Notes: generated by a model not told the origin, from the letters alone. Positions 18,195-64,000 are shown, numbered from the stretch's first letter. The stretch: DNA of 64,000 nt from Patescibacteria group bacterium (GCA_004297735.1 SCTI01000002.1:160-64159), one strand, 5' to 3'. Translations and numbers: made by a program.

Positions 18195-19517
18195 CTAGTG
18201 CATCGCCGCGGTCACCGTGGTGGTGGTCCCCGGTGTGTCCGAGTCGGTGATGACGACCGCGGAGTCGAACGACCCGGGTGTCCCGGGCGTCTCGGCCTTG
18301 ACGTCGGTGTTACCCGTCGTCGTGACCGTGCCGCCGGTGCCGGTCGCGGTAGCCGTGATCGTCACCATGCCCGCGACCGAAGTCGCCCACATGGTCACCC
18401 GGTAGCACTTGGTGCCGGTCGGGCACGGTGTGCCATCCCAGCGGTACGGAACCGAGATCTTGCCGGCAAACCAGGCCGACGCGTTGCCGCTGGTGATGAC
18501 CGCGTCACCGCTGGCGCCTTCACCCGAAGCCTCGTAGTAAACCTGGCAGTTGCCAGTCACGAAGATGTGGGCGCAGGTCGTCAGCTGGATCGACGGCGGT
18601 GGAATCACCGGCGGAGGCGGCGTGACCGGGGGCGGCGGCGGAGGCGGAACCTCCTTCTTGCAGATATCCCCGTTCACCGTCACGTAGTTGCCGTTGCCGA
18701 CCACCACGATGCTGCACTCCGCAACGATCACGAAGCACTGCTGGATCTGCGAGTTCCACACGTGGTTCTGCTCGGCCTTGCACTGCTGCTCAGCCGAAAC
18801 CACCTGGCCGGGGGTTGCGGTTGGCGGGACCTCAGCCGTCGGCGGGATCTTGCGAACCAGCCGCCTCTTGACCGACTTGACCTTCTTGACGAAGGCCCGG
18901 ACATACGTCTTGCACTTCTGCCACTTCTTGCCGGCCACCACGTTACGGCAGTAGGCCTTCATGAAGGGGCGATACGAGACGCACTCCTTGTACTTCTGGT
19001 GGTAGGTGGTGCTCGTCTCGATCGTCTCGTCGACGTACACCTCCGTCTCACCGGTCGCGTCGTTGTGCACGAACTGCTCCGGCGAGATCGAGATGACCTT
19101 GCTGGTGGGCTTCCCCACCGGCTTCGGCTTCCCGACCCGCTTCTTGCTCGTCGACCGAACGGCCAGCACACCCATGTGGGAATGCCGGTAGTTGCCGTCG
19201 AATGTCGAGTAGACGCCCCCGCTGCACGAGGTGTTGAACGACAGCGTGTAGCCGCCCGGGGTGGTCGTGAAGACCACCTTCGGCGACTGCAGGAACGCCA
19301 TGACCGACTGGTCCTGGTGCATGTAGCCCTGCTCGATGAGCTTGCGCTTCATCGAAGGCAGGAACTTCTTGCCCGCCGGCGTCTTGTAATACGCGACGGC
19401 GCCGGCCTTCGAGGTGAAGCCCGGACCGCAGTACGCCTGGGCCGGCGCGGCGGCGCCGAACGACATCAGGATCGCCGCCACCACGGCGGCGATCGACAGC
19501 ATGACCTTGCGGAACAT
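18195..19517 (-). CDS. secreted Cys-rich protein with poly-Pro linker, high-GC (foreign)
   Basis: start MFRKVMLSIAAVVAAILMSFGAAAPAQA (signal peptide) with RBS GGAGGT; many Cys, PPPPPPPVTPPPPVIPPP linker, Thr/Gly-rich C-terminus; about 65% GC; the longer ORF to 19781 has no RBS. Confidence 0.5.
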   Translation of the reverse strand: MFRKVMLSIAAVVAAILMSFGAAAPAQAYCGPGFTSKAGAVAYYKTPAGKKFLPSMKRKLIEQGYMHQDQSVMAFLQSPKVVFTTTPGGYTLSFNTSCSGGVYSTFDGNYRHSHMGVLAVRSTSKKRVGKPKPVGKPTSKVISISPEQFVHNDATGETEVYVDETIETSTTYHQKYKECVSYRPFMKAYCRNVVAGKKWQKCKTYVRAFVKKVKSVKRRLVRKIPPTAEVPPTATPGQVVSAEQQCKAEQNHVWNSQIQQCFVIVAECSIVVVGNGNYVTVNGDICKKEVPPPPPPPVTPPPPVIPPPSIQLTTCAHIFVTGNCQVYYEASGEGASGDAVITSGNASAWFAGKISVPYRWDGTPCPTGTKCYRVTMWATSVAGMVTITATATGTGGTVTTTGNTDVKAETPGTPGSFDSAVVITDSDTPGTTTTVTAAMH

Positions 19518-19882
19518 GGTGACCTCCAGGGTCGTGGGACGGATGAACTTGATGAATCGGCTGACGAACTTGTCAGCCGTCTGGCGGGTGAGGTGCACGT
19601 TGGGCATGACCCCTCCTTTCGGATGGCTGACAAGACTACCGCGTAGCCCAACTACGCGGTTACGGTGATGTGTACCGAAACCTGGGAATATATCGTGGGC
19701 GGCACAAATATATTCCCAGAGTACGGCACACAGCCTAATCGCGTAGAGGACTGTGCAAATGTCTAGTTCTATAGGTATCAAGGGTCTTGATGACCCATGA
19801 CTATCTAGCTTGTCAATGTCCCCTCATCTGAACCAGTTCGGTTGATTTCTCCACCTCACCTCTGTTCTTCAGAGTGAATATA

Positions 19883-52222: not shown

Positions 52223-52270
52223 TAAGTTCTATTATACGCGGTAAGCCGGGTCAACAAAATCTACCAAGAC

Positions 52271-52289
52271 CCTGGTGGAACTGTTGGGG
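52271..52289 (-). repeat. attR-like direct repeat: 3' end of the tRNA-like gene
   Basis: minus-strand CCCCAACAGTTCCACCAGG versus copy A CCCCATAGCTCCACCAGG and A2/B CCACAGCTCCACCAG. Confidence 0.5.
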
Positions 52290-52467
52290 CGCCTCTCTAA
52301 CCCAGATTCTGGCAGATAGCAGTTTTACACGCTATTTGCAGGGTGGGCATTTGACTATCGGATGGCGCTTTGCGCATGCTGAAGACCCACCGATCGGTGG
52401 GTCCCGAGGTCCACTGGCAAGGGGACGCGGGGCAACGTACTACAACCCCGCAAAGGAGGTGGAGTAC

Positions 52468-52653
52468 ATGGGAAAGCCAAAGTTCGACACCCAGTCGAAC
52501 AACTCGAATGCGTGGGTCGGTGTCCGCGAAGGTCAGGACAGATCATCCGGCAAGACGCATACCGAGATCATCGTGCATGACAAGAGCAACAACGATCACG
52601 CTCACGTCGGCATCGATAAGAGCGGCAATCAGATATATCGCCGTGATCGCTAA
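52468..52653 (+). CDS. hypothetical 61-aa protein (island cargo)
   Basis: RBS AAAGGAGGTG 7 nt before ATG; MGKPKFDTQSNNSNAWVGVREGQDRSSGKTHTEIIVHDKSNNDHAHVGIDKSGNQIYRRDR; high GC. Confidence 0.35.
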   Translation: MGKPKFDTQSNNSNAWVGVREGQDRSSGKTHTEIIVHDKSNNDHAHVGIDKSGNQIYRRDR

Positions 52654-52699
52654 ATAGCGACACCGAGGCCCTTCCGGCCTCGGGCCGGGAGGGCCTCAT

Positions 52700-53026
52700 C
52701 TATACGCGGCGCGTCAGGCCATCCTCGCGAGCTACTCCCTCACCGAACGCCGATGCAATCGCGCTGTAGCGCGCGAGGAGCACCAGAGCGTTCGCAATCT
52801 CGCCATGCTCAGCCGGTACGAGAAACTCTCGCATCCACGCTGAGTTCGGAGTCGCAGCCATTATGTCCGCGAGCACAGCAGCCTCTTCGGGATCTGCTGC
52901 CGCCCAACGATCACGAATCAGCTTCGAAGCTTGATCGATCGATCGGTCATCGAAGTCGTCCTCGTCGAAGCGACGGCGCATTTCATCGCGCAGCTCGACC
53001 AAGTCTTGTAATTCACTGTTACCCAT
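52700..53026 (-). CDS. hypothetical acidic 108-aa protein (island cargo)
   Basis: convergent with the 61-aa gene across a GC-rich bidirectional hairpin (52665-52700); divergent from the recombinase gene. Confidence 0.4.
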   Translation of the reverse strand: MGNSELQDLVELRDEMRRRFDEDDFDDRSIDQASKLIRDRWAAADPEEAAVLADIMAATPNSAWMREFLVPAEHGEIANALVLLARYSAIASAFGEGVAREDGLTRRV

Positions 53027-53268
53027 GGCTTTATTGTCGAACAGGCCAGCGACTCATGCAAGCACGAGCGTGTCCAATCGCCCGTCCGATCGCGTCAGAG
53101 TGCTCGCTCCTGAACTTCCCGCATTCAGGCGCTTTCCGCTCGATTAAGGCCTAGGACTATCTAGGGCCCTTTGCCCTCCCTTACTACAAACGCCTCCAGA
53201 TCTGGCAAAATACGTATTGGCTTAACTACTGATACGAGCTAAGATCCTTAACGAAAGGAGGTGCACAT

Positions 53269-55002
53269 ATGAGTGAAAGTGATAAAACTGTGACTCTCGC
53301 TCAAGCGCCCAAGAAGGCGCTGGTGTATCTCCGTGTGTCCTCGGCCCAGCAGGCCGAGACCGACTACGACGTTGAGGGCTTCTCGATCCCAGCTCAGCGC
53401 GAGGCCTGCAGGCGCCGTGCCGCGGAGCTAGAAGCTGAGGTCGAAGCAGACTTCGTCGATCGCGGCGAGTCGGCCAGAAGCGCTGACCGCCCAGCCCTGC
53501 AACGGATGCTGGCCAGGCTTGAAGCCGGCGGCATCGATTACGTCATCGTCCACAAGCTGGATCGACTGGCGCGTAACCGGGCCGACGACGTCGAGATCGC
53601 GATGCGGATCAAGGCAGGCGGTGCGGTGCTGGTCTCCGTCACCGAGAACATCGATGAGACGCCATCCGGGATGTTGGTTCACGGAATCATGTCCTCGATC
53701 GCCGAGTTCTATAGCCGCAACCTGGCCTCAGAGATCGTCAAAGGCTCCCGGCAGAAGGCCAAGAACGGCGGCACGCTGACCCGGGCGCCCATTGGGTACC
53801 TGAACGTGCGCGAGTTCGTAGATGGCCGCGAGATCCGCACTATCGGTATCGACGAGGAACGAGCGCCGTACGTGCAGCTGGCGTTCGAGCTCTACGCCAC
53901 CGGCAACTACTCGCTGTCGCAGCTCTCCACGCTGCTCGAACACCAGGGGCTGCGTTCCCGGGCTACTCGCCGGCGGCCGAGCGTCCCGGTCACGGCCAGC
54001 AAGCTTCAGGCGATTCTGCGCAACCCGTACTACAAGGGCATCGTCTCCTACCAAGGCGAGAGCTTCCCCGGTCGGCATCAGCCGCTCGTTGACGACGATC
54101 TGTTTGAGCGAGTCGGCCAAGTCCTCTCCGGCAAGAAGCTCAGTGGCGAGCGGGACCGCAAGCACCGTCACTACCTCAAGGGCTCGCTCTACTGCGGCGA
54201 GTGCGGCCGCCGTCTGACGTTCAGTCGCAACACCGGCAATGGTGGCTCCTACGACTACTTCGTCTGCAGTGGCAAGCAGCGCAAGACCTGCAGCCAGGGA
54301 TATCTGCGCACCGATCACATCGAGGCTGAGGTCGAGAAGCTCTACGCGACAGTCCAGCTGACGACCAAGCAGCGCGCAGAGATCCGCCGCCTGGTTGAGA
54401 CACACCTCGATGCCATGCGGGCGGTGACCGACGCCGAAGCCAACAAAGCCACGGCTGAGATCACAAAGCTGCTGCGCGAAGAACGCAAGCTGCTTGAGCT
54501 GTACTACGCAGACCTCGTGAGCCGCGAGGCCTACGCCGAAGAGACCAAGCGGATTGCCGACGGCAAGCGGGCCGCCCAGCGACGTATTGACGAAGCTTCA
54601 GGAACTACACAGGAGCTACTCGAGGCACTCAACCGTGCGCTGGAGATGACAACCAACGCGCACAAGACCTACCTGATGTCCGACTTCACCGGACGCCGCC
54701 TAATGAACCAAATGTTCTTCAAGCGGATCGAGGTCAAGGCCGACGAGATCGATGACGTCAAGCTCTCCGACCCCTACGCCCAGCTACTGGCCCAGGACCT
54801 GCTGGCAGAAGCCGAGGAAGCCGCCAGAGAGGCCGCCGCTACCGGCGTCTGGGAGGCCCCGGAACTTCAGGCCGAACCGGCCACAGGGCCCGGAAACCAA
54901 AGAACCCTCGGCCTTTCTTTGGCCGAGGGTTCCATTAGTACTGCTGTCATGGAGCTGTGGGGATTCGAACCCCAAGCACGAAGATTATCGGTCCTTTGCT
55001 AG
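53269..55002 (+). CDS. large serine recombinase (phage-integrase type)
   Basis: 577 aa; N-terminal resolvase domain with catalytic Ser (LVYLRVSSAQQ), recombinase domain, Zn-ribbon (CGECGRR...FVCSG) and coiled-coil; RBS AAAGGAGGTG; the 3' end of the ORF runs into tRNA-like copy B, so the true stop is uncertain. Confidence 0.85.
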   Translation: MSESDKTVTLAQAPKKALVYLRVSSAQQAETDYDVEGFSIPAQREACRRRAAELEAEVEADFVDRGESARSADRPALQRMLARLEAGGIDYVIVHKLDRLARNRADDVEIAMRIKAGGAVLVSVTENIDETPSGMLVHGIMSSIAEFYSRNLASEIVKGSRQKAKNGGTLTRAPIGYLNVREFVDGREIRTIGIDEERAPYVQLAFELYATGNYSLSQLSTLLEHQGLRSRATRRRPSVPVTASKLQAILRNPYYKGIVSYQGESFPGRHQPLVDDDLFERVGQVLSGKKLSGERDRKHRHYLKGSLYCGECGRRLTFSRNTGNGGSYDYFVCSGKQRKTCSQGYLRTDHIEAEVEKLYATVQLTTKQRAEIRRLVETHLDAMRAVTDAEANKATAEITKLLREERKLLELYYADLVSREAYAEETKRIADGKRAAQRRIDEASGTTQELLEALNRALEMTTNAHKTYLMSDFTGRRLMNQMFFKRIEVKADEIDDVKLSDPYAQLLAQDLLAEAEEAAREAAATGVWEAPELQAEPATGPGNQRTLGLSLAEGSISTAVMELWGFEPQARRLSVLC

Positions 55003-55016
55003 ACCAACTCAGCCCC
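54950..55016 (-). ncRNA. tRNA-like small RNA, copy B (integration target; 3' CCA end replaced by island DNA)
   Basis: GGGGCTGAGTTGGTCTAGCAAAGGACCGATAATCTTCGTGCT-TGGGGTTCGAATCCCCA-CAGCTCC-A; fully paired acceptor with G3:U70; aligns to copy A along its whole length. Confidence 0.4.
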
Positions 55017-55144
55017 GCGTAAAAGCCATTGCTACCACCAAGGCATTTACAGTATTTCAAACAGTTATTAACAAAAAATTATCGATTTGACATGGAATGC
55101 AAAAATGTTAATCTATATCTGTACGAGGATTATCGGTCCTACCT

Positions 55145-55185: not shown

Positions 55186-58137
55186 TTAGCTCTTCTTCAA
55201 CGAGATTATCAGCTCTTCCCCATCAACTTTGGTGTGCTGCGTATCCTCAAAGTGATCCGAACCGCTCGTCACCTTCTCCGCCAAAACCTCTTGGGCAATT
55301 GTCGCCTGATGCTCTTTGAGGGCCTCGCTGAGATCTTTTGCTTCACCGACTACGTCAAAGTTGAGCTCGATTCGGTCATCAACTTGGAGACCAGCCCGTT
55401 TACGCAAGTTCTGAACATGGCGAACCACATCGCGCATGATGCCCTCGCGCTTGAGTTCGGGAGTGATAGTGGTGTTAATCTCTACACCTGATTTGTACTC
55501 ACCAGACGCCCTCTCGAACTTGACCTCCTTAACGTTCAGCTCTTCTTTAGCGATATTTAATAAACTTTCTTCCAATGGATCTGTCCACTGCAGCGTAGCC
55601 ATACTGAGTGGCTGACGAACCTTGATACCCGTGCCTCTTGCCCTGAGCTCGAGCCCCTGGGTAATGAGCCTTCGTAGAACGGTCATGCGTTCTAATAAAT
55701 CCTCATCAATCTCCCCGGTCTCCGGCCAGTCGCTCAGATGAACCGAAGCTGGAACGTCCATACCGGCAGTCAGCTCGCGCCACAGCTTATCGGACACAAA
55801 TGGACTCCACGGCGCCAGTAGCTGCGCGATTCGCGCCATGGCGTAATGCAGCGTGGCGTAGGCGGCCTGCTTGTCGCCATCATCCTCACTCTTCCAAAAG
55901 CGGCGGCGACTGCGGCGCACGTACCAGTTAGACAGATCATCGATCAGCTCGCGAATTGGACGGGTCGCCTTAGCGATTTGGTAGGCATCGGCCTGCTTGG
56001 TCGATTCGGCAATGGTTTGGTTGAGGCGAGCGAGTAGCCACTGGTCCAAAATGTTGTCGCTGTCTGGCTGGGTTAGAGTTTTTGGCGGCTGCCAGTTGTC
56101 TACCTCGGCGTAGGTACTAAAGAAGCTATACACGTTCCAGAGTCGAAGGAAAACGTTGCGCGCGGTCTCCTGCACGGCCTCGGACGAAAAACGAACATCC
56201 TCACCGGCCACAACCGGGCTCGACATCAAGAAGAAGCGCAGACTATCGGCACCCTGCGTACTAAAGAGCTCGGCTGGATCGGGGTAATTTTTTAATCGTT
56301 TACTCAGCTTTTTGCCATCGGCGGCCAGGACGAGCCCGTTCACGACCACGTTTTTATAGGCCGGCTTATCCATTAGGGCGGTCCCGAGTACGTGTAGGGT
56401 GTAGAACCAGCCGCGAGTCTGGTCCAGACCTTCGGCAATAAACTCAGCCGGGAAGGCCTTGGCGAAGCCATCTTTATGCTCAAACGGATAGTGATCCTGG
56501 GCGTATGGCATCGCCCCGCTCTCAAACCAACAGTCAAACACCTCTTCGGTGCGTTTGTAGGTTTTACCATCGCGTTTAATAACGATTTCATCAATGCCGG
56601 GACGGTGCAGATCAAACTCTTTATCGTGGCCACTGAGCTCACGGAGTTCGTCGAGACTACTAATGACGATGATGTCCTCAGTATCCTCCACGTTCACCCA
56701 AATTGGTAGCGGCGCGCCCCAGAACCGGTTGCGGCTAAAGTTCCAGTCACGCGCGTCGGCCAGCCAGTTACCAAAGCGACCTTGTTTAATGTGATCTGGC
56801 ACCCAGTTAACCTGGTTGTTGTTGGCGACCAGTTTTTCGCGCAGATCGGTTACCTTAATAAACCAGCTTGGAGTCGCAAAGTACATCAGCGGAGTCTCAC
56901 AGCGCCAGCAGAACGGGTAGGTGTGCTCAAAGGTTTCGGCGGCGAAGATGCGGCCCTTGGCGGTCAGGTCGGCGATAATGTGTGGGTCGGCGTCCTTAAA
57001 GAAGGTGCCAACGATTGATTCCAGGCCGTCAACTTGCTTGAGAGCTTCAACCATGACGCCAAATCCGTCCACGCTTTCGATGAGCGGCAGATTTTCGCGC
57101 TTACCAAGCTCTAGGTCGGTCTCGCCATAGCGCGGCGCGACATGGAGGACCCCGGTGCCGTCTTCAAGGCTAACCGAGTCATCGGCGTAGACTTGATGCG
57201 CATTATTAAGCTGGGCTTCGTCGGTTACTGCGAGCTTATACAGCGGCAGATACCGCTTGCCCACCAAATCGCTTCCTTTGTGCTCTGCGACCACCTTGTA
57301 GTCGGCTTTGCGCAGCTCCAGCTCGCTTAGGCGCTTCTTAGCCAAGATGAGTCGCTCGCCTCGCTTCCACTCCTCACCTTCACCCGAATTGGTCAGCTCA
57401 ACCGTGACGTATTCAGCTTTTACGTCAACCGCCAGAGCAGCGTTAGCTGGCAATGTCCACGGCGTAGTGGTCCAGGCAAGCAGCGAGGTGTTTTCATCAT
57501 CTTTTAATTGGAACTTAACGTAAACGCTGGGGTCGGGCACGTTATCTTTGTAGTTTTGATTAACCTCAAAGTTACTTAAGGTGGTGGCGCAACGCGGACA
57601 GTACGGGCTAGAACGAAAACCGCGGTAAACCAATCCTTTTTCGTGCAGCTGACTCAACACCCACCAGACGCTTTCAATGTAGTTATCGTCCAGGGTGGCA
57701 TAGGAGTTTTCTTGATCGCTCCAGCGACCCAGGCGAGTCATAAACTCTTCCCACTCATTCTTATACTTAAAGACGCTGGCGCGGGCAGCTTCATTAAACT
57801 TATCTACACCAAGCTCCAGAATCTGGCGCTTGCTGGTTATGCCTAGCTGTTTTTCAACCTCATTTTCAACCGGTAAACCATGGGTGTCCCAGCCGTTGCG
57901 GCGCGGGACATAGTAGCCGCGCATGGTTTTATAGCGGGTGATTGAATCTTTTTCGGTCAGAGCCACCACGTGACCATAGTGCGGCAAGCCGTTGGCAAAT
58001 GGCGGGCCGTCATAAAAGCTGAATCGATCGCTGCCCTGACGCTGCTCAACGCTTTGTTCGAAGGTTTTTTCATCCTTCCAAGTCTTGAGCATCTCGGCTT
58101 CGAAGGCGGGAAAGTCGGCTGGCTGGGCTTTTTTCAT
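55186..58137 (-). CDS. ileS: isoleucine--tRNA ligase
   Basis: 983 aa; HYGH (HIGH) and KMSKS (KLSKR) motifs, CP1 editing domain. Confidence 0.95.
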   Translation of the reverse strand: MKKAQPADFPAFEAEMLKTWKDEKTFEQSVEQRQGSDRFSFYDGPPFANGLPHYGHVVALTEKDSITRYKTMRGYYVPRRNGWDTHGLPVENEVEKQLGITSKRQILELGVDKFNEAARASVFKYKNEWEEFMTRLGRWSDQENSYATLDDNYIESVWWVLSQLHEKGLVYRGFRSSPYCPRCATTLSNFEVNQNYKDNVPDPSVYVKFQLKDDENTSLLAWTTTPWTLPANAALAVDVKAEYVTVELTNSGEGEEWKRGERLILAKKRLSELELRKADYKVVAEHKGSDLVGKRYLPLYKLAVTDEAQLNNAHQVYADDSVSLEDGTGVLHVAPRYGETDLELGKRENLPLIESVDGFGVMVEALKQVDGLESIVGTFFKDADPHIIADLTAKGRIFAAETFEHTYPFCWRCETPLMYFATPSWFIKVTDLREKLVANNNQVNWVPDHIKQGRFGNWLADARDWNFSRNRFWGAPLPIWVNVEDTEDIIVISSLDELRELSGHDKEFDLHRPGIDEIVIKRDGKTYKRTEEVFDCWFESGAMPYAQDHYPFEHKDGFAKAFPAEFIAEGLDQTRGWFYTLHVLGTALMDKPAYKNVVVNGLVLAADGKKLSKRLKNYPDPAELFSTQGADSLRFFLMSSPVVAGEDVRFSSEAVQETARNVFLRLWNVYSFFSTYAEVDNWQPPKTLTQPDSDNILDQWLLARLNQTIAESTKQADAYQIAKATRPIRELIDDLSNWYVRRSRRRFWKSEDDGDKQAAYATLHYAMARIAQLLAPWSPFVSDKLWRELTAGMDVPASVHLSDWPETGEIDEDLLERMTVLRRLITQGLELRARGTGIKVRQPLSMATLQWTDPLEESLLNIAKEELNVKEVKFERASGEYKSGVEINTTITPELKREGIMRDVVRHVQNLRKRAGLQVDDRIELNFDVVGEAKDLSEALKEHQATIAQEVLAEKVTSGSDHFEDTQHTKVDGEELIISLKKS

Positions 58138-58460: not shown

Positions 58461-58721
58461 TCAGCCTAGCAAGCTGTTGGCGCCCTGGACCAACAGCTGC
58501 ATTAGCAAAAAAGCGACCAGCGGAGCAAAATCAATCATCTGTGTCTTTGGCAGAATCATCCGAATTGGTATTAATACTGGCTCGGTTAAATCAACCAATA
58601 GCGCGCCAAAACCGCCCTTGGGGTTTGGGTCGATCCAGCTCATTAATACGCGCGCCAATAAAACGATATTAAAAATAAAGACAAATAAATTAATAAAATT
58701 TAAAGAAAACTCGGCTAGCAT
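58461..58721 (-). CDS. YggT family membrane protein
   Basis: 86 aa, two TM, RVLMSWI...P signature region. Confidence 0.5.
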   Translation of the reverse strand: MLAEFSLNFINLFVFIFNIVLLARVLMSWIDPNPKGGFGALLVDLTEPVLIPIRMILPKTQMIDFAPLVAFLLMQLLVQGANSLLG

Positions 58722-59070: not shown

Positions 59071-59387
59071 GCCAGGGATTCCTCCGGCGGCTCAACGTCG
59101 CAAACACCCCTCAACCAGAGCTCGGTATCGAGCTGGTGCGCGAAGCGCTTGAGGCTGAGATTGCGCCCAACCTTGACGTCAACCGAGACGGAGGTCGAAA
59201 AGTCTCTACCCTCGCCAAAGCGCTCAAGCGCTCGGCGATCCTCCGGGCTGATGTATTCTGGTCCACCTATTCCAGAGTGGTCCAGGCGAACCAGCAACTT
59301 GCAGGCAGATAAGGCTGATTTGACGGTCAGGCGATACGTGGGCGGCTCCTTAAGCATTACTCCTCCTCGCAATTGGTGACCCAACAA
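59067..59387 (-). CDS. hypothetical protein
   Basis: 106 aa ORF; no family recognised. Confidence 0.3.
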   Translation of the reverse strand: MLGHQLRGGVMLKEPPTYRLTVKSALSACKLLVRLDHSGIGGPEYISPEDRRALERFGEGRDFSTSVSVDVKVGRNLSLKRFAHQLDTELWLRGVCDVEPPEESLA

Positions 59388-59407
59388 AAAAGAGTCCGCT
59401 TGGACTC
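59384..59407 (-). terminator. rho-independent terminator
   Basis: GAGTCC-gctt-GGACTC followed by T7 on the minus strand. Confidence 0.6.
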
Positions 59408-59434
59408 CCTACTGCGTTTGCTTGTGCGTTTAAG

Positions 59435-59527
59435 CTACGATGAAGTCCGAGGTTGATGGCCAAGCATCAGCAGGCCGCTCACGACGAGCAGGACTACGGT
59501 GACGAGACTGTTACCAACGGTCTTCAT
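59435..59527 (-). CDS. candidate leaderless 30-aa hydrophobic peptide
   Basis: MKTVGNSLVTVVLLVVSGLLMLGHQPRTSS; promoter TTGACA(59558-59563)-17 nt-TAGTCT(59535-59540) with ATG 7 nt after the -10; terminator 28 nt after the stop. Confidence 0.3.
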   Translation of the reverse strand: MKTVGNSLVTVVLLVVSGLLMLGHQPRTSS

Positions 59528-59764
59528 ACGGCTTAGACTACGCCTCCAATTTAATGATGTCAACAGATTAAGATAAGAAAGTTTCGGACCGGGCCCGACG
59601 CCTTCCCTTTGCAGAGAAAGTGTCGGAACCCAGCCCGTGTCTGCCCTCGGCCGTCAACCGAAGGCTAGATGTAGATCACTATCCTTTCCACCCCTGGTCG
59701 TGATCAAAATACCAAGGGATAACCTCGCCGACGGGATGCCGGCAAGACTGCTGCGACGGACGAC

Positions 59765-62700
59765 CTAGCTGCAGCCGGCGGTGCTGCCACAGCTATTGCA
59801 GACGGGGCAAGGCCCACCCTTGCGAACCATCAAGCCACCGCAATCGGAACAGATGCCCGCCACGGACAGGCCGAGGTAGGTAAGCGGCTGCTCCGCAGGC
59901 GAATCCGGCTTGCTACCGTCACCGGTTGTCGAAACAGCAAGCTCCTGCTGAGCTGCCTCCGCGTACTCGACCGGAGTCGACCCACCGGCATCCTCAGCCA
60001 TCTTGCGCTTGCGCACCTCAGGCGTCAAGATGCCGAGCTCCTCCTGGACATCCGTATCCAGGAAGCGGCTGGCCAGCCAGCGCATGATGTAGTCCGGCAG
60101 ACTCTTGGCGAACGGGATCTCGATGTTCTCGGTGATCCCTTCCGGCTCGAATCGCACGAAGCTGAACTTCTCCACCAGCGTCTCAAGCGGCACCCCGTAC
60201 TGGAGCGCGATCGAGATCGCCGTGGCGAAGGAGTTCATCATGCCCTTGAGCGCTGAGCCTTCCTTGCCGAGACCGTTGATGAAGATCTCTCCCATCGTCC
60301 CGTCCTCGTACATACCGGCCACAATGTAGCCTTCGTGACCTCCGAGGACGAACTTGTGAGTGATCGACTTGCGCTCCCGCGGCATCCTCCGGCGAGCCGG
60401 TGTGCCGCGAGCGATCTCGACGAGGATCAGGGTGATCATCTCCGACTCGTCCGCCGTCAGGACCTTGCGGTCACCAATGAGGGACTCGTAGAGATCGCCG
60501 ACTGCCTTGAGTGTGGGCACGCCCTTGATCAGGGCATGCTCGAACACCTCGCACAAGGCCTCGACCGCCGCGCGCTGGATCGGCTCGCCGAGCTCAACGC
60601 CCGACTCGCCCTTACCCATCTGCGCGTCCGTGCGCAGCGCCTGGGCGGTCTTGGACCCATCGCGGTAGATGGCCAGAGCCTTGACGCCGAGGCGCCAGGC
60701 CTGGGTGTACGCGTCAGCGATGTCCTCGACGGTGGTCTCCTGCGGCATGTTGACCGTCTTGGAGATCGCACCGCTGATGAACGGCTGAACCGCACCCATC
60801 ATCTTGATGTGGCCCATGTGGCTGATCGCCCGCTCGCCGACCGCGACATCGAACACCGGCAGGTGCTTCGGGTCGAGACCCGGAGCGCCGATGATCGTGC
60901 CGTGCTCGGTGATGTACTCCTCGATGACCTCGATCTTCTGGTCGTTGTACCCGAGGGTACGCAGAGCCAGCGGAACCGTCCGGTTAGGGATGGTCATCTG
61001 ACCGCCACCAACCAGCTCCTTGAACTTGACCAGCGAGAAGTCCGGCTCGACGCCGGTGGTGTCGCAGTCCATCAGGAACGAGATCGTCCCCGTCGGTGCG
61101 AGCACCGTGGCCTGCGCGTTGCGGTAGCCGTGCTGCTCGCCGAGCGTGACCGCCTGATGCCAGGCAAGGCGCGCCTCGGCCAGCAGATCCATGTCACGAA
61201 TGTGACCATCCGGGATCTGCTGTGCGGCGTCATGGTGCATCCGCATCACCTTGTTGTGCGGCTCGCGGTTATCGGCGTACCTGTCGTACGGACCGATGGC
61301 CGCCGCGATCTTGGCCGACTGAGCGTAAGCCCGACCGGTCATGAGCGCGGTGATGGCCGCCGCCGTTGCCCGACCCTTGTCGGAGTCGTACGGCATGCCG
61401 TTGGCCATCAGGTAGGCACCGAGGTTGGCGTACCCCAGGCCGAGCTGACGGAACGCTCGCGCGTTATCACCGATCTCCTCCGTCGGGTAGGACGAAGGGC
61501 CAACGATGATCTCCTGCGCCAGGAACACGATGTCCACCGCTTGCTTGAAGCGCTCGGTGTCGAACGTGCCATCCTCACGCCGGAACTTCATCAGGTTCAG
61601 CGAGGCCAGGTTGCAGGCCGAGTCATCGACATGCATGTACTCGCTGCACGGGTTCGAGGCGTTGATGCGCCCCGAGTTCGGATCGGTGTGCCACTGGTTG
61701 ATGGTGGTGTCGTACTGCACGCCAGGGTCGGCACAGCGCCAGGCCGCCTCCGCGATGTCTCGCATCAGGTCCCGAGCCGGAATCGGATCGCCGACCGGAT
61801 CCCCGGTCTTGCGAGCGATCAGGTGCCAGTCCTCGTCGTTCTCGACCGCCTGCATGAACTCGTCCGACACGCGGACCGAGTTGTTGGCGTTCTGGTACTG
61901 AACGTGCCTGAAGCCGCGACCGTCGATGGACATGTCGAAGCCCTTTTCCTGCAGAGCCCCGGCCACCTCTTCGGCCTCGACCTTACACCAGATGAACTCC
62001 CGGATGTCCGGGTGGTCCACGTCCAGCACTACCATCTTGGCCGCCCGACGTGTCTTGCCGCCGGACTTGATGGTGCCGGCCCAGGAGTCGGCGCCACGCA
62101 TGAACGACACCGGTCCGCTGGCCGTGCCGCCCTTGCTCAGCGGCTCCATCGAACCGCGGATCGCCGACAGGTTGATGCCGGAACCGGAGCCGCCGCGGAA
62201 GATCTTACCCTCCCGCGTGTTCCAGTCCAGGATCGAATCCATCGTGTCCTCGACACTCAGGATGAAGCAGGCCGAGCACTGCGGGTTCTCTTCGAACCCG
62301 ACGTTGAACCAGACCGGGCTGTTGAAAGCCGCCGCCTGGTCCAGCAGCAGGAAGAGCAGCTCGTCGTAGAAGATCGAGGCCGGGTGATCGGGCTCCTGCT
62401 CACGCAGAACCTCGATCTTCCCCCGCCCAGGACCGAAGTAGCCCCTGGCCATACCCCACTGGGTGATGGTCTTGGCAACCCGGCCGGTCATCTGCCTGAC
62501 CGAGCGCTCACGCGTCGGTGAGCCCAGCTGTCCGCGGAAGTACTTCTGCGCCACGATGTTGGTGGCGTTCTGGCTCCACAACTTCGGGAACTCGACGTCC
62601 TTCTGCTCGAACGCGACCTTGTCGCCGTGACCGATGCGCGCGTCACGGGTCTCCCAGTCGACGGTGTCGAACGGGTGCACGCCCTCCTTGGTGAAGTAGC

Positions 62701-62782
62701 GCGTGATCTTGAGAGGCTTGCTAGCTACGCCGTTATGGGGCGCCGCCAGCGTCTGCTGACCTTCGGTTTCGGTCGATGCCAT
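59765..62782 (-). CDS. nrdJ: class II (adenosylcobalamin-dependent) ribonucleoside-diphosphate reductase NrdJ, actinobacterial type, high-GC
   Basis: 1005 aa; RNR barrel motifs, C-terminal CxxC...CxxC ribbon; about 63% GC with GC3-rich codons, unlike nrdR upstream. Confidence 0.9.
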   Translation of the reverse strand: MASTETEGQQTLAAPHNGVASKPLKITRYFTKEGVHPFDTVDWETRDARIGHGDKVAFEQKDVEFPKLWSQNATNIVAQKYFRGQLGSPTRERSVRQMTGRVAKTITQWGMARGYFGPGRGKIEVLREQEPDHPASIFYDELLFLLLDQAAAFNSPVWFNVGFEENPQCSACFILSVEDTMDSILDWNTREGKIFRGGSGSGINLSAIRGSMEPLSKGGTASGPVSFMRGADSWAGTIKSGGKTRRAAKMVVLDVDHPDIREFIWCKVEAEEVAGALQEKGFDMSIDGRGFRHVQYQNANNSVRVSDEFMQAVENDEDWHLIARKTGDPVGDPIPARDLMRDIAEAAWRCADPGVQYDTTINQWHTDPNSGRINASNPCSEYMHVDDSACNLASLNLMKFRREDGTFDTERFKQAVDIVFLAQEIIVGPSSYPTEEIGDNARAFRQLGLGYANLGAYLMANGMPYDSDKGRATAAAITALMTGRAYAQSAKIAAAIGPYDRYADNREPHNKVMRMHHDAAQQIPDGHIRDMDLLAEARLAWHQAVTLGEQHGYRNAQATVLAPTGTISFLMDCDTTGVEPDFSLVKFKELVGGGQMTIPNRTVPLALRTLGYNDQKIEVIEEYITEHGTIIGAPGLDPKHLPVFDVAVGERAISHMGHIKMMGAVQPFISGAISKTVNMPQETTVEDIADAYTQAWRLGVKALAIYRDGSKTAQALRTDAQMGKGESGVELGEPIQRAAVEALCEVFEHALIKGVPTLKAVGDLYESLIGDRKVLTADESEMITLILVEIARGTPARRRMPRERKSITHKFVLGGHEGYIVAGMYEDGTMGEIFINGLGKEGSALKGMMNSFATAISIALQYGVPLETLVEKFSFVRFEPEGITENIEIPFAKSLPDYIMRWLASRFLDTDVQEELGILTPEVRKRKMAEDAGGSTPVEYAEAAQQELAVSTTGDGSKPDSPAEQPLTYLGLSVAGICSDCGGLMVRKGGPCPVCNSCGSTAGCS

Positions 62783-62936
62783 TGAGCATCTTCCCCTTTC
62801 TGCCTACAGGCAGTCGTTGATAGGCTGCCTGGCGGCAGTACTACGTAGTTGGCTTGTCAAAGACCTTTCGGATACAAACGTACTGTTAGATACCCGTGAG
62901 ATGGCTGCGCGAAGCAGCTACCACACGGACCCCCAA

Positions 62937-63401
62937 CTATCTTTTTAATGGACGGCGCTTTAGTCTAGCCAGTTCGGCTTCAAACGACTCCACATCGGTA
63001 AAGGAGCGATACACGCTAGCAAAGCGGACATAAGCCACGTCATCAAGCTCCAGCAAGTGATCCATGGCCAGCTCGCCAATTCGCTCCACCGACACCTCCG
63101 GCTCCCCCAGCGAACGAAGTTCACGCTCAATCTGGTTGATGGTTTCCTCAAGCTGCGAAGCGGCAACCGGACGCTTTTCGCAAGCCCGGTACAGCCCGCC
63201 AGCCAGCTTTTGACGATCAAATGGCTCACGGCGGCCGTCCTTCTTTATAATGGTCAGTCGAGGCTGTTCGGTTCGTTCGTAGGTGGTAAAACGAAAGCTA
63301 CACTTTAGACACTGACGCCGACGGCGGATTTGAGCGCCGTCCTCTAAGTCGCGCGACTCAATCACCTTAGAATCTAAGTAACCACAATCTGGGCATCTCA
63401 T
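62937..63401 (-). CDS. nrdR: transcriptional repressor NrdR
   Basis: 154 aa; N-terminal Zn ribbon CPxC...CxxC plus ATP-cone; host-like GC of about 54%. Confidence 0.9.
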   Translation of the reverse strand: MRCPDCGYLDSKVIESRDLEDGAQIRRRRQCLKCSFRFTTYERTEQPRLTIIKKDGRREPFDRQKLAGGLYRACEKRPVAASQLEETINQIERELRSLGEPEVSVERIGELAMDHLLELDDVAYVRFASVYRSFTDVESFEAELARLKRRPLKR

Positions 63402-63443: not shown

Positions 63444-63496
63444 ACACCACCCTTGGTGTATTATTCTTGTGCTTACTCCATATCTAGCGTAAGCAC
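63444..63496 (-). promoter_or_regulatory. two palindromes upstream of nrdR (candidate NrdR boxes)
   Basis: ACACCACCCTTGGTGT (63444-63459, ACAC...GTGT ends) and GTGCTTAC-N12-GTAAGCAC (63469-63496); centres 31 bp apart. Confidence 0.3.
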
Positions 63497-63605
63497 TATC
63501 TACTATAACGCTTGTGCTCCTATGGATGTCAATCTTGATTTTAGGTATAAATGTTAGGTAAATAATTTTGACCTAGGTTCACTTCGCGTGAACCAGGTCC
63601 ACAGT

Positions 63606-64000
63606 CTAGTGCTTGCGGCGGCGGATGAAGGCCGGTACATCCAGGTCGTCATCGCTAACTCGACCGGTAACCGCGCCGGCGGCTCGCTGGATTAGCGAAC
63701 GAGCACCCTTTTTAGCAGGCTCGGGCGAAGCGCTGGGCTTGGCGGTCTTTTTTGGCTCATCATTAAATAGATCGTGGTCGTCATCGTCGTGATCAGCTGG
63801 GGTGGCCTCGTCTTCCGGCTCAATTGAGCTAACGGTGGGCTGAGGTTTCTTGGCAAACAGGTCATCTTCATCAGCCGTGCTGTCGGCCGAATCGATCGAA
63901 GCTGAGCTGGTTTGTTCATCAATAAAAGGCTTGGCGGCAAACCGATGGGCCACCGGCTGTGGTTCTGGCTCCGGCTCATCAACCTTAATATCGATGGCGG
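63606..64000 (-). CDS. ftsZ: cell division protein FtsZ, C-terminal part (5' end outside window)
   Basis: acidic disordered linker ending in the conserved C-terminal peptide DDLDVPAFIRRRKH; frame stays open to the window edge. Confidence 0.5.
   Translation of the reverse strand, partial: AIDIKVDEPEPEPQPVAHRFAAKPFIDEQTSSASIDSADSTADEDDLFAKKPQPTVSSIEPEDEATPADHDDDDHDLFNDEPKKTAKPSASPEPAKKGARSLIQRAAGAVTGRVSDDDLDVPAFIRRRKH

Follow-up and report, generated by a model that had tools for sequence, protein, structure and literature searches.

Horizontal transfer and xenologous displacement are well documented for ribonucleotide reductases (RNRs) of all classes. An example of documented RNR transfer is reportedly that of Lundin et al. 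2010, and in Streptomyces the regulator gene nrdR is said to be co-transcribed with the class II gene nrdJ as an nrdRJ operon (reportedly from Borovok, Grinberg, Cohen and co-workers). Here, a stretch of 64,000 nucleotides from a Patescibacteria group bacterium (GCA_004297735.1, SCTI01000002.1:160-64159; referred to below as the window, with positions counted from its first letter) was analysed, in which a high-GC class II nrdJ gene stands behind nrdR. We consider it likely that this is an in-situ xenologous replacement: an ancestor of a Saccharimonadales subclade would have taken nrdJ from an actinobacterium near Solirubrobacteraceae, the native nrdR, promoters and leader being kept, and the gene would then have descended vertically. 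No report of this particular replacement was found in the literature.

Like the Streptomyces nrdRJ operon, the window has a co-directional nrdR immediately upstream of class II nrdJ. Unlike in Streptomyces, this nrdR is of the Saccharimonadales type, the arrangement predates the import, and the spacer between the two genes has a TTGACA-type promoter of its own. The window protein shares the Ribonuc_red_2_N domain, barrel, TSCPD domain and Cys-rich tail of actinobacterial NrdJ proteins of NF005122 / PRK06556 (Svornostia abyssi WP_353864425.1; Solirubrobacteraceae MBJ7521262.1 and MBJ7332100.1). Its identity to them was 75-77%, rising to ∼82% for two related loci (L002 and L084), and G/C-ending codons were shared. 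In contrast to those actinobacterial genes, the window nrdJ resides in a chromosome of ∼53% GC, where it is preceded by a native leader and by an nrdR that is not actinobacterial; its G+C content at third codon positions (GC3) was 0.86 compared with their 0.92-0.99, and its protein evolves faster. As in RNR displacement in general, a distantly related homologue of another phylum has taken over an essential function. What goes beyond the general case is the presence of three xenologs in one syntenic slot, with one conserved regulator and leader, and a donor that can be named at the family level.

The nrdR-nrdJ pair and its composition step

The nrdJ gene (59765..62782, minus strand) was assigned from Pfam, NCBIfam, composition and phylogeny to class II (adenosylcobalamin-dependent) RNRs, with a product of 1005 amino acids. 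The protein was matched by PF02867 (Ribonuc_red_lgC, 1.7e-140), PF08471 (Ribonuc_red_2_N, 4e-16) and PF12637 (TSCPD, 2.6e-10), and it scored 1333.7 bits with the equivalog model NF005122 (cut-off 859) and 594.6 bits with TIGR02504 (cut-off 399.95). Its thiyl-radical loop, SNPCSEYM at residues 376-383, was identical in the alignment to that of the solved class II RNR 7b9p, and its C-terminus was a Cys-rich tail, CSDCGG...CPVCNSCGSTAGC. Neither an nrdB-like nor an nrdG-like gene adjoined nrdJ in the window. Because nrdJ was intact in six lineages, both equivalog models were passed and the radical loop was kept, the product is predicted to be the cell's working enzyme for the synthesis of deoxynucleoside triphosphates. 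The displaced enzyme would also have been of class II, so the cofactor requirement would be unchanged by the swap.

The neighbouring nrdR (62937..63401, minus strand, 154 amino acids) was identified by Pfam, TIGR00244 and composition as the native transcriptional repressor of RNR genes, with PF22811 (Zn_ribbon_NrdR) at 2.2e-20, PF03477 (ATP-cone) at 3.2e-25 and a TIGR00244 score of 197.6 bits (cut-off 124.65). From the adjacency of the two genes, nrdJ is presumably still repressed by NrdR. Database proteins with 100% identity were TAK88854.1 for NrdJ and TAK88855.1 for NrdR.

The two genes were found to differ sharply in composition. The mean GC of the whole window was 53.4%, and 47 of its 50 open reading frames (ORFs) had a GC3 of 0.582 ± 0.045 with a maximum of 0.688. 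For nrdR, the GC was 0.538 and the GC3 0.555, which is 0.6 standard deviations below the mean of the 47 ORFs; for nrdJ, they were 0.640 and 0.858, the latter 6.1 standard deviations above it. The initial annotation, which had given nrdR as ∼54% GC and nrdJ as ∼63% GC with GC3-rich codons, was thus accurate on this point. It had also drawn the high-GC segment through the 3' flank down to about 59440 at ∼63% GC, and this did not hold: outside the nrdJ coding sequence (CDS), GC was 0.54 at 59388-59764, 0.55 at 59441-59764 and 0.54 in the spacer at 62783-62936. The edges of the GC step were the start and stop codons of the nrdJ CDS. As the step matches the CDS, an interval starting at 59388 takes in ∼375 bp of DNA of backbone composition.

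An Arg-rich ORF of 728 amino acids on the strand opposite to nrdJ (60335..62521, plus strand), already described as spurious, was present. The longest stop-free antisense stretch was 754 amino acids, whereas synonymous-codon shuffles of nrdJ gave 675 ± 154 amino acids and 34% of the shuffles reached the observed value. Since shuffling of the synonymous codons gave similar lengths, the antisense ORF is a by-product of composition. The equivalent stretch in the related locus L086 was only 374 amino acids. A real overlapping gene constraining the synonymous sites was ruled out by the shuffles together with this truncation.

Actinobacterial affinity of nrdJ in a Saccharimonadales slot

After the Saccharimonadales copies, the best database matches of NrdJ were Solirubrobacteraceae proteins with 70-72% BLASTP identity. 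The 80 closest metagenomic nrdJ loci were all on high-GC contigs (flanks 0.60-0.80), and their nrdJ genes had a GC3 of 0.72-0.99 and a composition matching the surroundings. L170, an NCBI Solirubrobacteraceae metagenome-assembled genome (MAG), and L171 were contigs of 71-73% GC with typical actinobacterial neighbours; the window nrdJ was 81% identical to them in nucleotides over 2.1 kb by blastn, and no similarity of either nrdJ flank to actinobacterial loci was found by blastn.

An amino-acid tree of NrdJ was built from 111 taxa and 905 columns, with 50%-cluster representatives as outgroups; this and all other trees were distance trees made by neighbour joining (NJ). The type-A cluster, containing all the Actinobacteria and the Saccharimonadales copies, was separated from the outgroups with 100% bootstrap. 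Within it, the window, L001, L002 and L084 were joined at 97% with P0005, P0006 and P0012, a Solirubrobacteraceae subclade, and the 90% cluster of P0005 includes the cultured Svornostia abyssi protein. Because of this nesting in Actinobacteria, together with the composition, the transfer would have run from Actinobacteria to Saccharimonadales, and the donor is inferred to be a high-GC soil or freshwater actinobacterium close to Solirubrobacteraceae.

The surroundings of nrdJ told of another lineage. The housekeeping genes of the window include mraW, recO, secA, several aminoacyl-tRNA synthetase genes, mreBC, parAB, ftsW, ileS, yggT and ftsZ, and those of PBP2, S2, EF-Ts, RRF and a sortase. The order ftsA-ftsZ-nrdR-RNR-(small ORFs)-yggT-ileS-ftsW was common to contigs from NCBI, JGI, ENA and Logan, and the synteny block was seen in L001-L003, L084-L086 and L167-L169, several of which are labelled Candidatus Saccharimonadales. 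In the window, the slot is fixed in this block by the C-terminal end of ftsZ (63606-63953) and by the native downstream neighbours yggT (58461-58721, minus strand) and ileS (55186-58137, minus strand), all assigned by Pfam; the GC3 of the latter two was 0.51-0.63. The window NrdR was 91% identical to those of L001 and L002/L003, 82% to that of L084, 73-77% (depending on the alignment method) to that of L085 and 67% to that of L086. Its close relatives were Saccharimonadales/Patescibacteria proteins. In a search of metagenomic contigs, the best 80 NrdR matches listed consisted of a single close locus, L004, whose sequence stops shortly after nrdR, and distant NrdRs, none of them actinobacterial; among the matches listed, NrdRs from a wide range of other phyla shared 52-62% identity with that of the window. 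A tblastn of NrdJ against these loci yielded no named sequences suitable as outgroups. The window comes from a Saccharimonadales genome (Patescibacteria/Candidate Phyla Radiation).

Five other assemblies carried the same nrdJ type in the same slot. The GC3 of nrdJ in these type-A relatives was 0.77-0.88, compared with 0.39-0.79 in their flanking genes, or 0.39-0.70 once two small unannotated ORFs of L001 were set aside. Because the same step occurred in the relatives, neither a chimeric assembly nor a recent change in the window genome accounts for it. Nor did the gene look like a recent or strain-specific island: each of the five other type-A assemblies has it, no tRNA was found at 50-64 kb, and no mobility gene adjoined nrdJ.

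Other RNRs were found in the same slot of more distant Saccharimonadales. Among the Saccharimonadales loci, type A comprises the window, L001, L002/L003 and L084-L086; type B is L167; type C (lgN) is L168 and L169. In L167 the slot held a class II RNR of 1000 amino acids, 40% identical to the window NrdJ. L168 and L169 carried RNRs of 902-953 amino acids with the domains lgN, lgC and TSCPD, which were 25-30% identical to the window NrdJ and 48.5% to each other; their N-terminal domain differed from that of the window NrdJ and, as in L167, the gene was placed between nrdR and yggT. Among Saccharimonadales, the lgN type seems to be the usual form: 11 of its homologues lie on contigs whose lengths match those of Saccharimonadales-type NrdR hits, while the two genes were seen together directly only in L168 and L169. 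In a tree of 10 flank proteins (3329 columns, unrooted), L167, L168 and L169 were split from the six type-A carriers at 92%.

The spacer between nrdR and nrdJ (62783..62936, minus strand, GC 0.54) contained a -35-like TTGACA (62855-62860), short CTGCC/GGCAG hairpins and a purine-rich ribosome-binding site. The spacers of all three types could be aligned, with a hairpin after nrdR, an invariant TTGA.AA and CTGCC/GGCAG motifs before the ribosome-binding site, and this motif occurred in 0 of 77 upstream regions of actinobacterial nrdJ genes. Since the spacers align across the types and the motif is absent from those actinobacterial regions, the exchange was essentially confined to the CDS, and the regulator, promoter and leader are still the native ones. 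The presence of other RNR types in the same slot, under the same promoter and leader, supported an in-situ xenologous replacement. The core proposal of the initial annotation, that a high-GC actinobacterial nrdJ had replaced the resident gene while the regulator stayed native, was therefore borne out by the phylogeny, the affinity of NrdR and the contents of the slot.

One element of that proposal had to be given up. The nrdR-nrdJ arrangement had been taken as a mark of an actinobacterial source, but types B and C also stand behind nrdR, so the nrdR-RNR arrangement predates the import, and nrdR was adjacent to nrdJ in only 3 of the 80 closest actinobacterial loci, where the NrdRs were 44-49% identical to that of the window. 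Being native to Saccharimonadales and mostly absent from the closest actinobacterial loci, the arrangement is not evidence for the donor.

The nrdJ 3' flank (59388..59764, minus strand, GC 0.54) lies outside the imported segment, and it was not co-transferred in any detectable way. It contains an ORF for a hydrophobic peptide of 30 amino acids (MKTVGNSLVTVVLLVVSGLLMLGHQPRTSS; 59435-59527, minus strand) with its own TTGACA-17-TAGTCT, of which 27/30 residues were identical in L001-L003, where it is called as a gene, and a terminator-like hairpin with a T-run (∼59385-59407, minus strand). In the loci with other RNR types, tRNA genes were observed directly 3' of the reductase gene (L167 11825-11973, L168 12624-12698).

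A very stable long leader hairpin with a conserved G-rich apical loop (GAGGGU / AAGGGGG) was observed 3' of the TTGA.AA box, and it occurred with all three RNR types. By folding it was located at ∼2426-2487 in L084, ∼8587-8650 in L085, ∼8550-8606 in L086 and within 8530-8660 in L167, L168 and L169, with energies of -26 to -48 kcal/mol and z-scores of -3.4 to -9.6 for sequences folded singly, while the stem sequences varied by locus. Consensus folding of the RNR leader (MAFFT and RNAalifold) gave a weak structure on a poor alignment. The window spacer was shortened by the loss of a hairpin segment of ∼100-130 nt, the element being deleted in the window, L001 and L002. These folding predictions make the hairpin a candidate cis-regulatory RNA. 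No B12 riboswitch or other Rfam family was found near nrdJ in the window or in six related loci, the leader hairpin included.

The nrdR promoter region (63465..63532, minus strand) contained TTGACA (63527-63532), TATAGT (63502-63507) and a conserved imperfect repeat or palindrome, with 25 invariant columns in eight Saccharimonadales loci (...AGCG.TATAGT....GCTTACGCTA.AT.TGG.GTAAGC...). From its conservation, the imperfect repeat may be a candidate lineage-specific NrdR operator. The generic 16-bp NrdR box (acaCwAtATaTwGtgt) had no match anywhere in the window with up to 3 mismatches, and nothing comparable to the conserved repeat of the nrdR promoter was recognised upstream of nrdJ.

Single or repeated import and evolution after the probable transfer

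On the reading preferred here, the ancestor of this Saccharimonadales subclade would have gained nrdJ from a high-GC actinobacterium near Solirubrobacteraceae, and the import would have displaced a resident class II reductase, of the lgN type that still occupies the slot in other Saccharimonadales. The swap would have been limited essentially to the CDS, so that nrdR and its promoter, as well as the promoter and leader next to the RNR gene, stayed native. Thereafter the imported gene would have been inherited vertically in six or more of the lineages sampled, perhaps with a degree of exchange between related ones. Its protein has evolved faster than its neighbours.

The number of imports was examined at synonymous sites. 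Excess identity at conserved 4-fold codons was 0.44-0.59 among the four close relatives (window, L001/2 and L084), 0.18-0.28 for pairs with L085 or L086, and 0.08-0.25 for any Saccharimonadales-Actinobacteria pair. The six nrdJ genes were united at 95% bootstrap in an NJ tree of composition-corrected 4-fold distances and at 99% in a third-position tree, and the order of nrdJ similarity tracked that of the flank genes. Because the synonymous-site trees unite all six genes, a single old acquisition is favoured; it would be clade-wide and placed at the base of the type-A clan.

Several results weigh against this picture. In the amino-acid NJ tree, the six Saccharimonadales NrdJ proteins formed one group with 0% bootstrap: L086 was basal in the cluster, and L085 stood beside the 97% clade, next to an actinobacterial partial sequence. 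This non-monophyly was attributed to long branches. The window NrdJ was 75-77% identical to actinobacterial proteins, compared with 64-77% to its own clade-mates. The union in the synonymous-site trees could be a compositional attraction that arises from partial amelioration common to the sequences. With no root in the flank tree, the polarity, in which type C is ancestral and type A derived, was taken from composition and from the nesting in Actinobacteria. The synonymous divergence of nrdJ was about twofold below that of its flanks, which later spread among lineages would also explain. Lastly, the type B and C reductase genes were also GC3-enriched (0.71-0.77 vs 0.44-0.63 in their flanks), mainly at 2-fold sites, and pure transfer does not explain this enrichment.

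Some of these results would be expected if several lineages had imported nrdJ independently, or had repeatedly recombined it with DNA of Actinobacteria, possibly their hosts, which would keep GC3 high. The lack of amino-acid support for monophyly, the synonymous divergence below that of the flanks and the three RNR types in one slot, which mark it as a replaceable locus, all agree with such recurrent replacement. So does the observation that, over codons 121-300, L001/L002 were 91-93% identical in nucleotides to L170/L171 and 81-82% to the window. However, the grouping of L001/L002 with Solirubrobacteraceae was obtained in 0/100 third-position trees for any segment and arose from codon positions 1+2 only. 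The signal in positions 1+2 only points to faster protein change in the lineage of the window, not to re-import, and a recent re-import of actinobacterial DNA into L001/L002 was rejected since third positions gave no support. With the union of the six genes at 4-fold sites, the much higher excess 4-fold identity among the four close relatives than across to Actinobacteria, and the similarity order that follows the flanks also standing against it, recurrent replacement is considered improbable.

A separate observation concerned L001 and L002, whose NrdR and IleRS were 100% and 98.9% identical. At L001 12146-12895, the last third of nrdJ (linker, TSCPD and C-terminal tail) differed by 13-23% in nucleotides from L002, and over the region as a whole identity was patchy, at 0.89-1.00. 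The pattern points to strains having recombined or to assemblies that mix strains.

By the NG86 method, nrdJ of the window and L002 gave a nonsynonymous divergence (dN) of 0.17, a synonymous divergence (dS) of 0.41 and a dN/dS of 0.42, compared with 0.06-0.11, 1.4-2.2 and 0.04-0.07, respectively, for ileS, nrdR, ftsW and yggT. In summary, dN/dS was 0.3-0.4 for nrdJ and ∼0.05 for its neighbours. Because the NG86 dS understates divergence in so biased a gene, composition-corrected 4-fold identity was preferred. By this measure, the identity of nrdJ decayed about half as fast as that of ileS at most depths (log-decay ratio 0.44-0.65), the exception being the closest pair, L001/L002. The G+C at 4-fold sites was 0.76-0.86 in Saccharimonadales nrdJ, 0.96 in L170/L171 and 0.50-0.66 in the flanks, corresponding to 30-50% of the way to equilibrium. 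Third positions having moved only 30-50% toward the host composition, the GC step is still conspicuous. Between the deeper lineages, the flanks were near synonymous saturation.

These values leave room for an additional idea, which we regard as possible but hold with more doubt than confidence: the slot behind nrdR may be a hot-spot for the replacement of RNR-CDS cassettes under a conserved native promoter and a structured leader, and, in addition, selection on synonymous sites, not youth, may keep the donor-like codons of the imported nrdJ. The latter was suggested by the GC3 enrichment of all three types in the slot, together with the decay of nrdJ 4-fold sites at about half the rate of the neighbours. 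Expression-linked codon bias as the source of the high GC3 found no support, as the presumed high-expression genes of S2, EF-Ts, RRF, L21, GreA and MreB were not G/C3-rich.

A vertical nrdJ without any transfer, its high GC3 arising from gene-specific bias (codon or mRNA selection), is very unlikely. It could draw on the GC3 enrichment of the unrelated type B and C genes, and on the GC step being kept in every relative. The initial annotation had named that step in relatives, along with NrdJ clustering in the lineage of NrdR, as pointing to bias in place of transfer; the former was found, but the latter was not. NrdJ showed 64-77% protein and 81% nucleotide identity to Actinobacteria and was nested by one Solirubrobacteraceae subclade, while NrdR was 44-62% identical to NrdRs of other phyla. 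In addition, sister Saccharimonadales lineages have a different RNR type, G and C at 4-fold sites were both raised, as in high-GC genomes, and the window genes of presumed high expression had no such bias. Finally, although the source is a MAG, a chimeric contig joining actinobacterial and Saccharimonadales DNA is practically dismissed by the same junctions and gene order in six independent assemblies (NCBI, JGI, ENA, Logan), by the difference of at least 19% in nucleotides between the window nrdJ and every actinobacterial copy found, and by step boundaries that fall at the start and stop codons.

Neighbouring features and meaning of the probable replacement

Two more GC3 outliers were found in the window. 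The first was an ORF at 18195-19781 (minus strand) with a GC3 of 0.86 and a C/G preference at 2-fold sites of 0.87/0.95, the same 2-fold-site signature as in nrdJ. Its likely product has a signal peptide at the start (MFRKVMLSIAAVVAAILMSFGAAAPAQA), a Pro-rich linker and a Thr-rich tail, and no Pfam or NCBIfam family was matched. This ORF, too, may have come from a high-GC donor.

The second was the gene of a large serine recombinase (53269-55002, plus strand; Resolvase, Recombinase and Zn_ribbon_recom domains) with a GC3 of 0.77. It lies in a GC-rich (0.60-0.64) insertion of ∼2.8 kb in the ileS-ftsW spacer (52243-55057), which was absent from L002, L085, L086 and L169, where the ileS-ftsW gap was 12-170 bp. 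At the ileS-side end of the insertion, a stretch like the 3' half of a tRNA (GGGGTTCGAATCCCCACAGCTCCA, ∼54950-54973, minus strand) and an 18-nt repeat (54978-54995 and 55123-55140) were observed; no complete tRNA was found at the insertion. With phage and plasmid recombinases the protein shared no more than 25-28% identity, which was uninformative on its origin. This insertion, 4.7 kb from nrdJ, is an event separate from the import of nrdJ.

Two observations were made on the related loci. L169 (GCA_035536395.1, DATLOE010000017.1) has the NCBI label Candidatus Dormibacteraeota, yet it showed the complete Saccharimonadales synteny and an NrdR 72-74% identical to that of the window, and it is probably mis-binned or mislabelled. 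In a 3-gene tree, the IleRS of L085 grouped with that of L169 at 100%, against the 10-protein flank tree, which hints at a separate exchange of ileS.

For RNRs, the replacement is an ordinary kind of event, here old and shared by a whole clade. It offers a positionally clean case, with three xenologs in one slot, a conserved regulator and leader, and boundaries at the start and stop codons. It also calls for caution in the composition-based dating of horizontal gene transfer (HGT), as a GC3 excess of 0.25-0.3 outlasts the synonymous saturation of the neighbours. If selection does hold the donor-like codons, a gene-specific force would be opposing amelioration in an ultra-small epibiont, and this force may be linked to its life on high-GC Actinobacteria.

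According to PMC11659515, cultured Saccharibacteria are epibionts of Actinobacteria, and HGT has been used to guess their hosts; a transfer from Actinobacteria into Saccharimonadales agrees with the host range described there. Since the transfer is old, it has little to say on present-day partners as such. Because cultured Saccharibacteria live on Actinobacteria, the narrowing of the donor to Solirubrobacteraceae, a family with cultured members, would give a hint at the past or present partners of this uncultured environmental Saccharimonadales clade.

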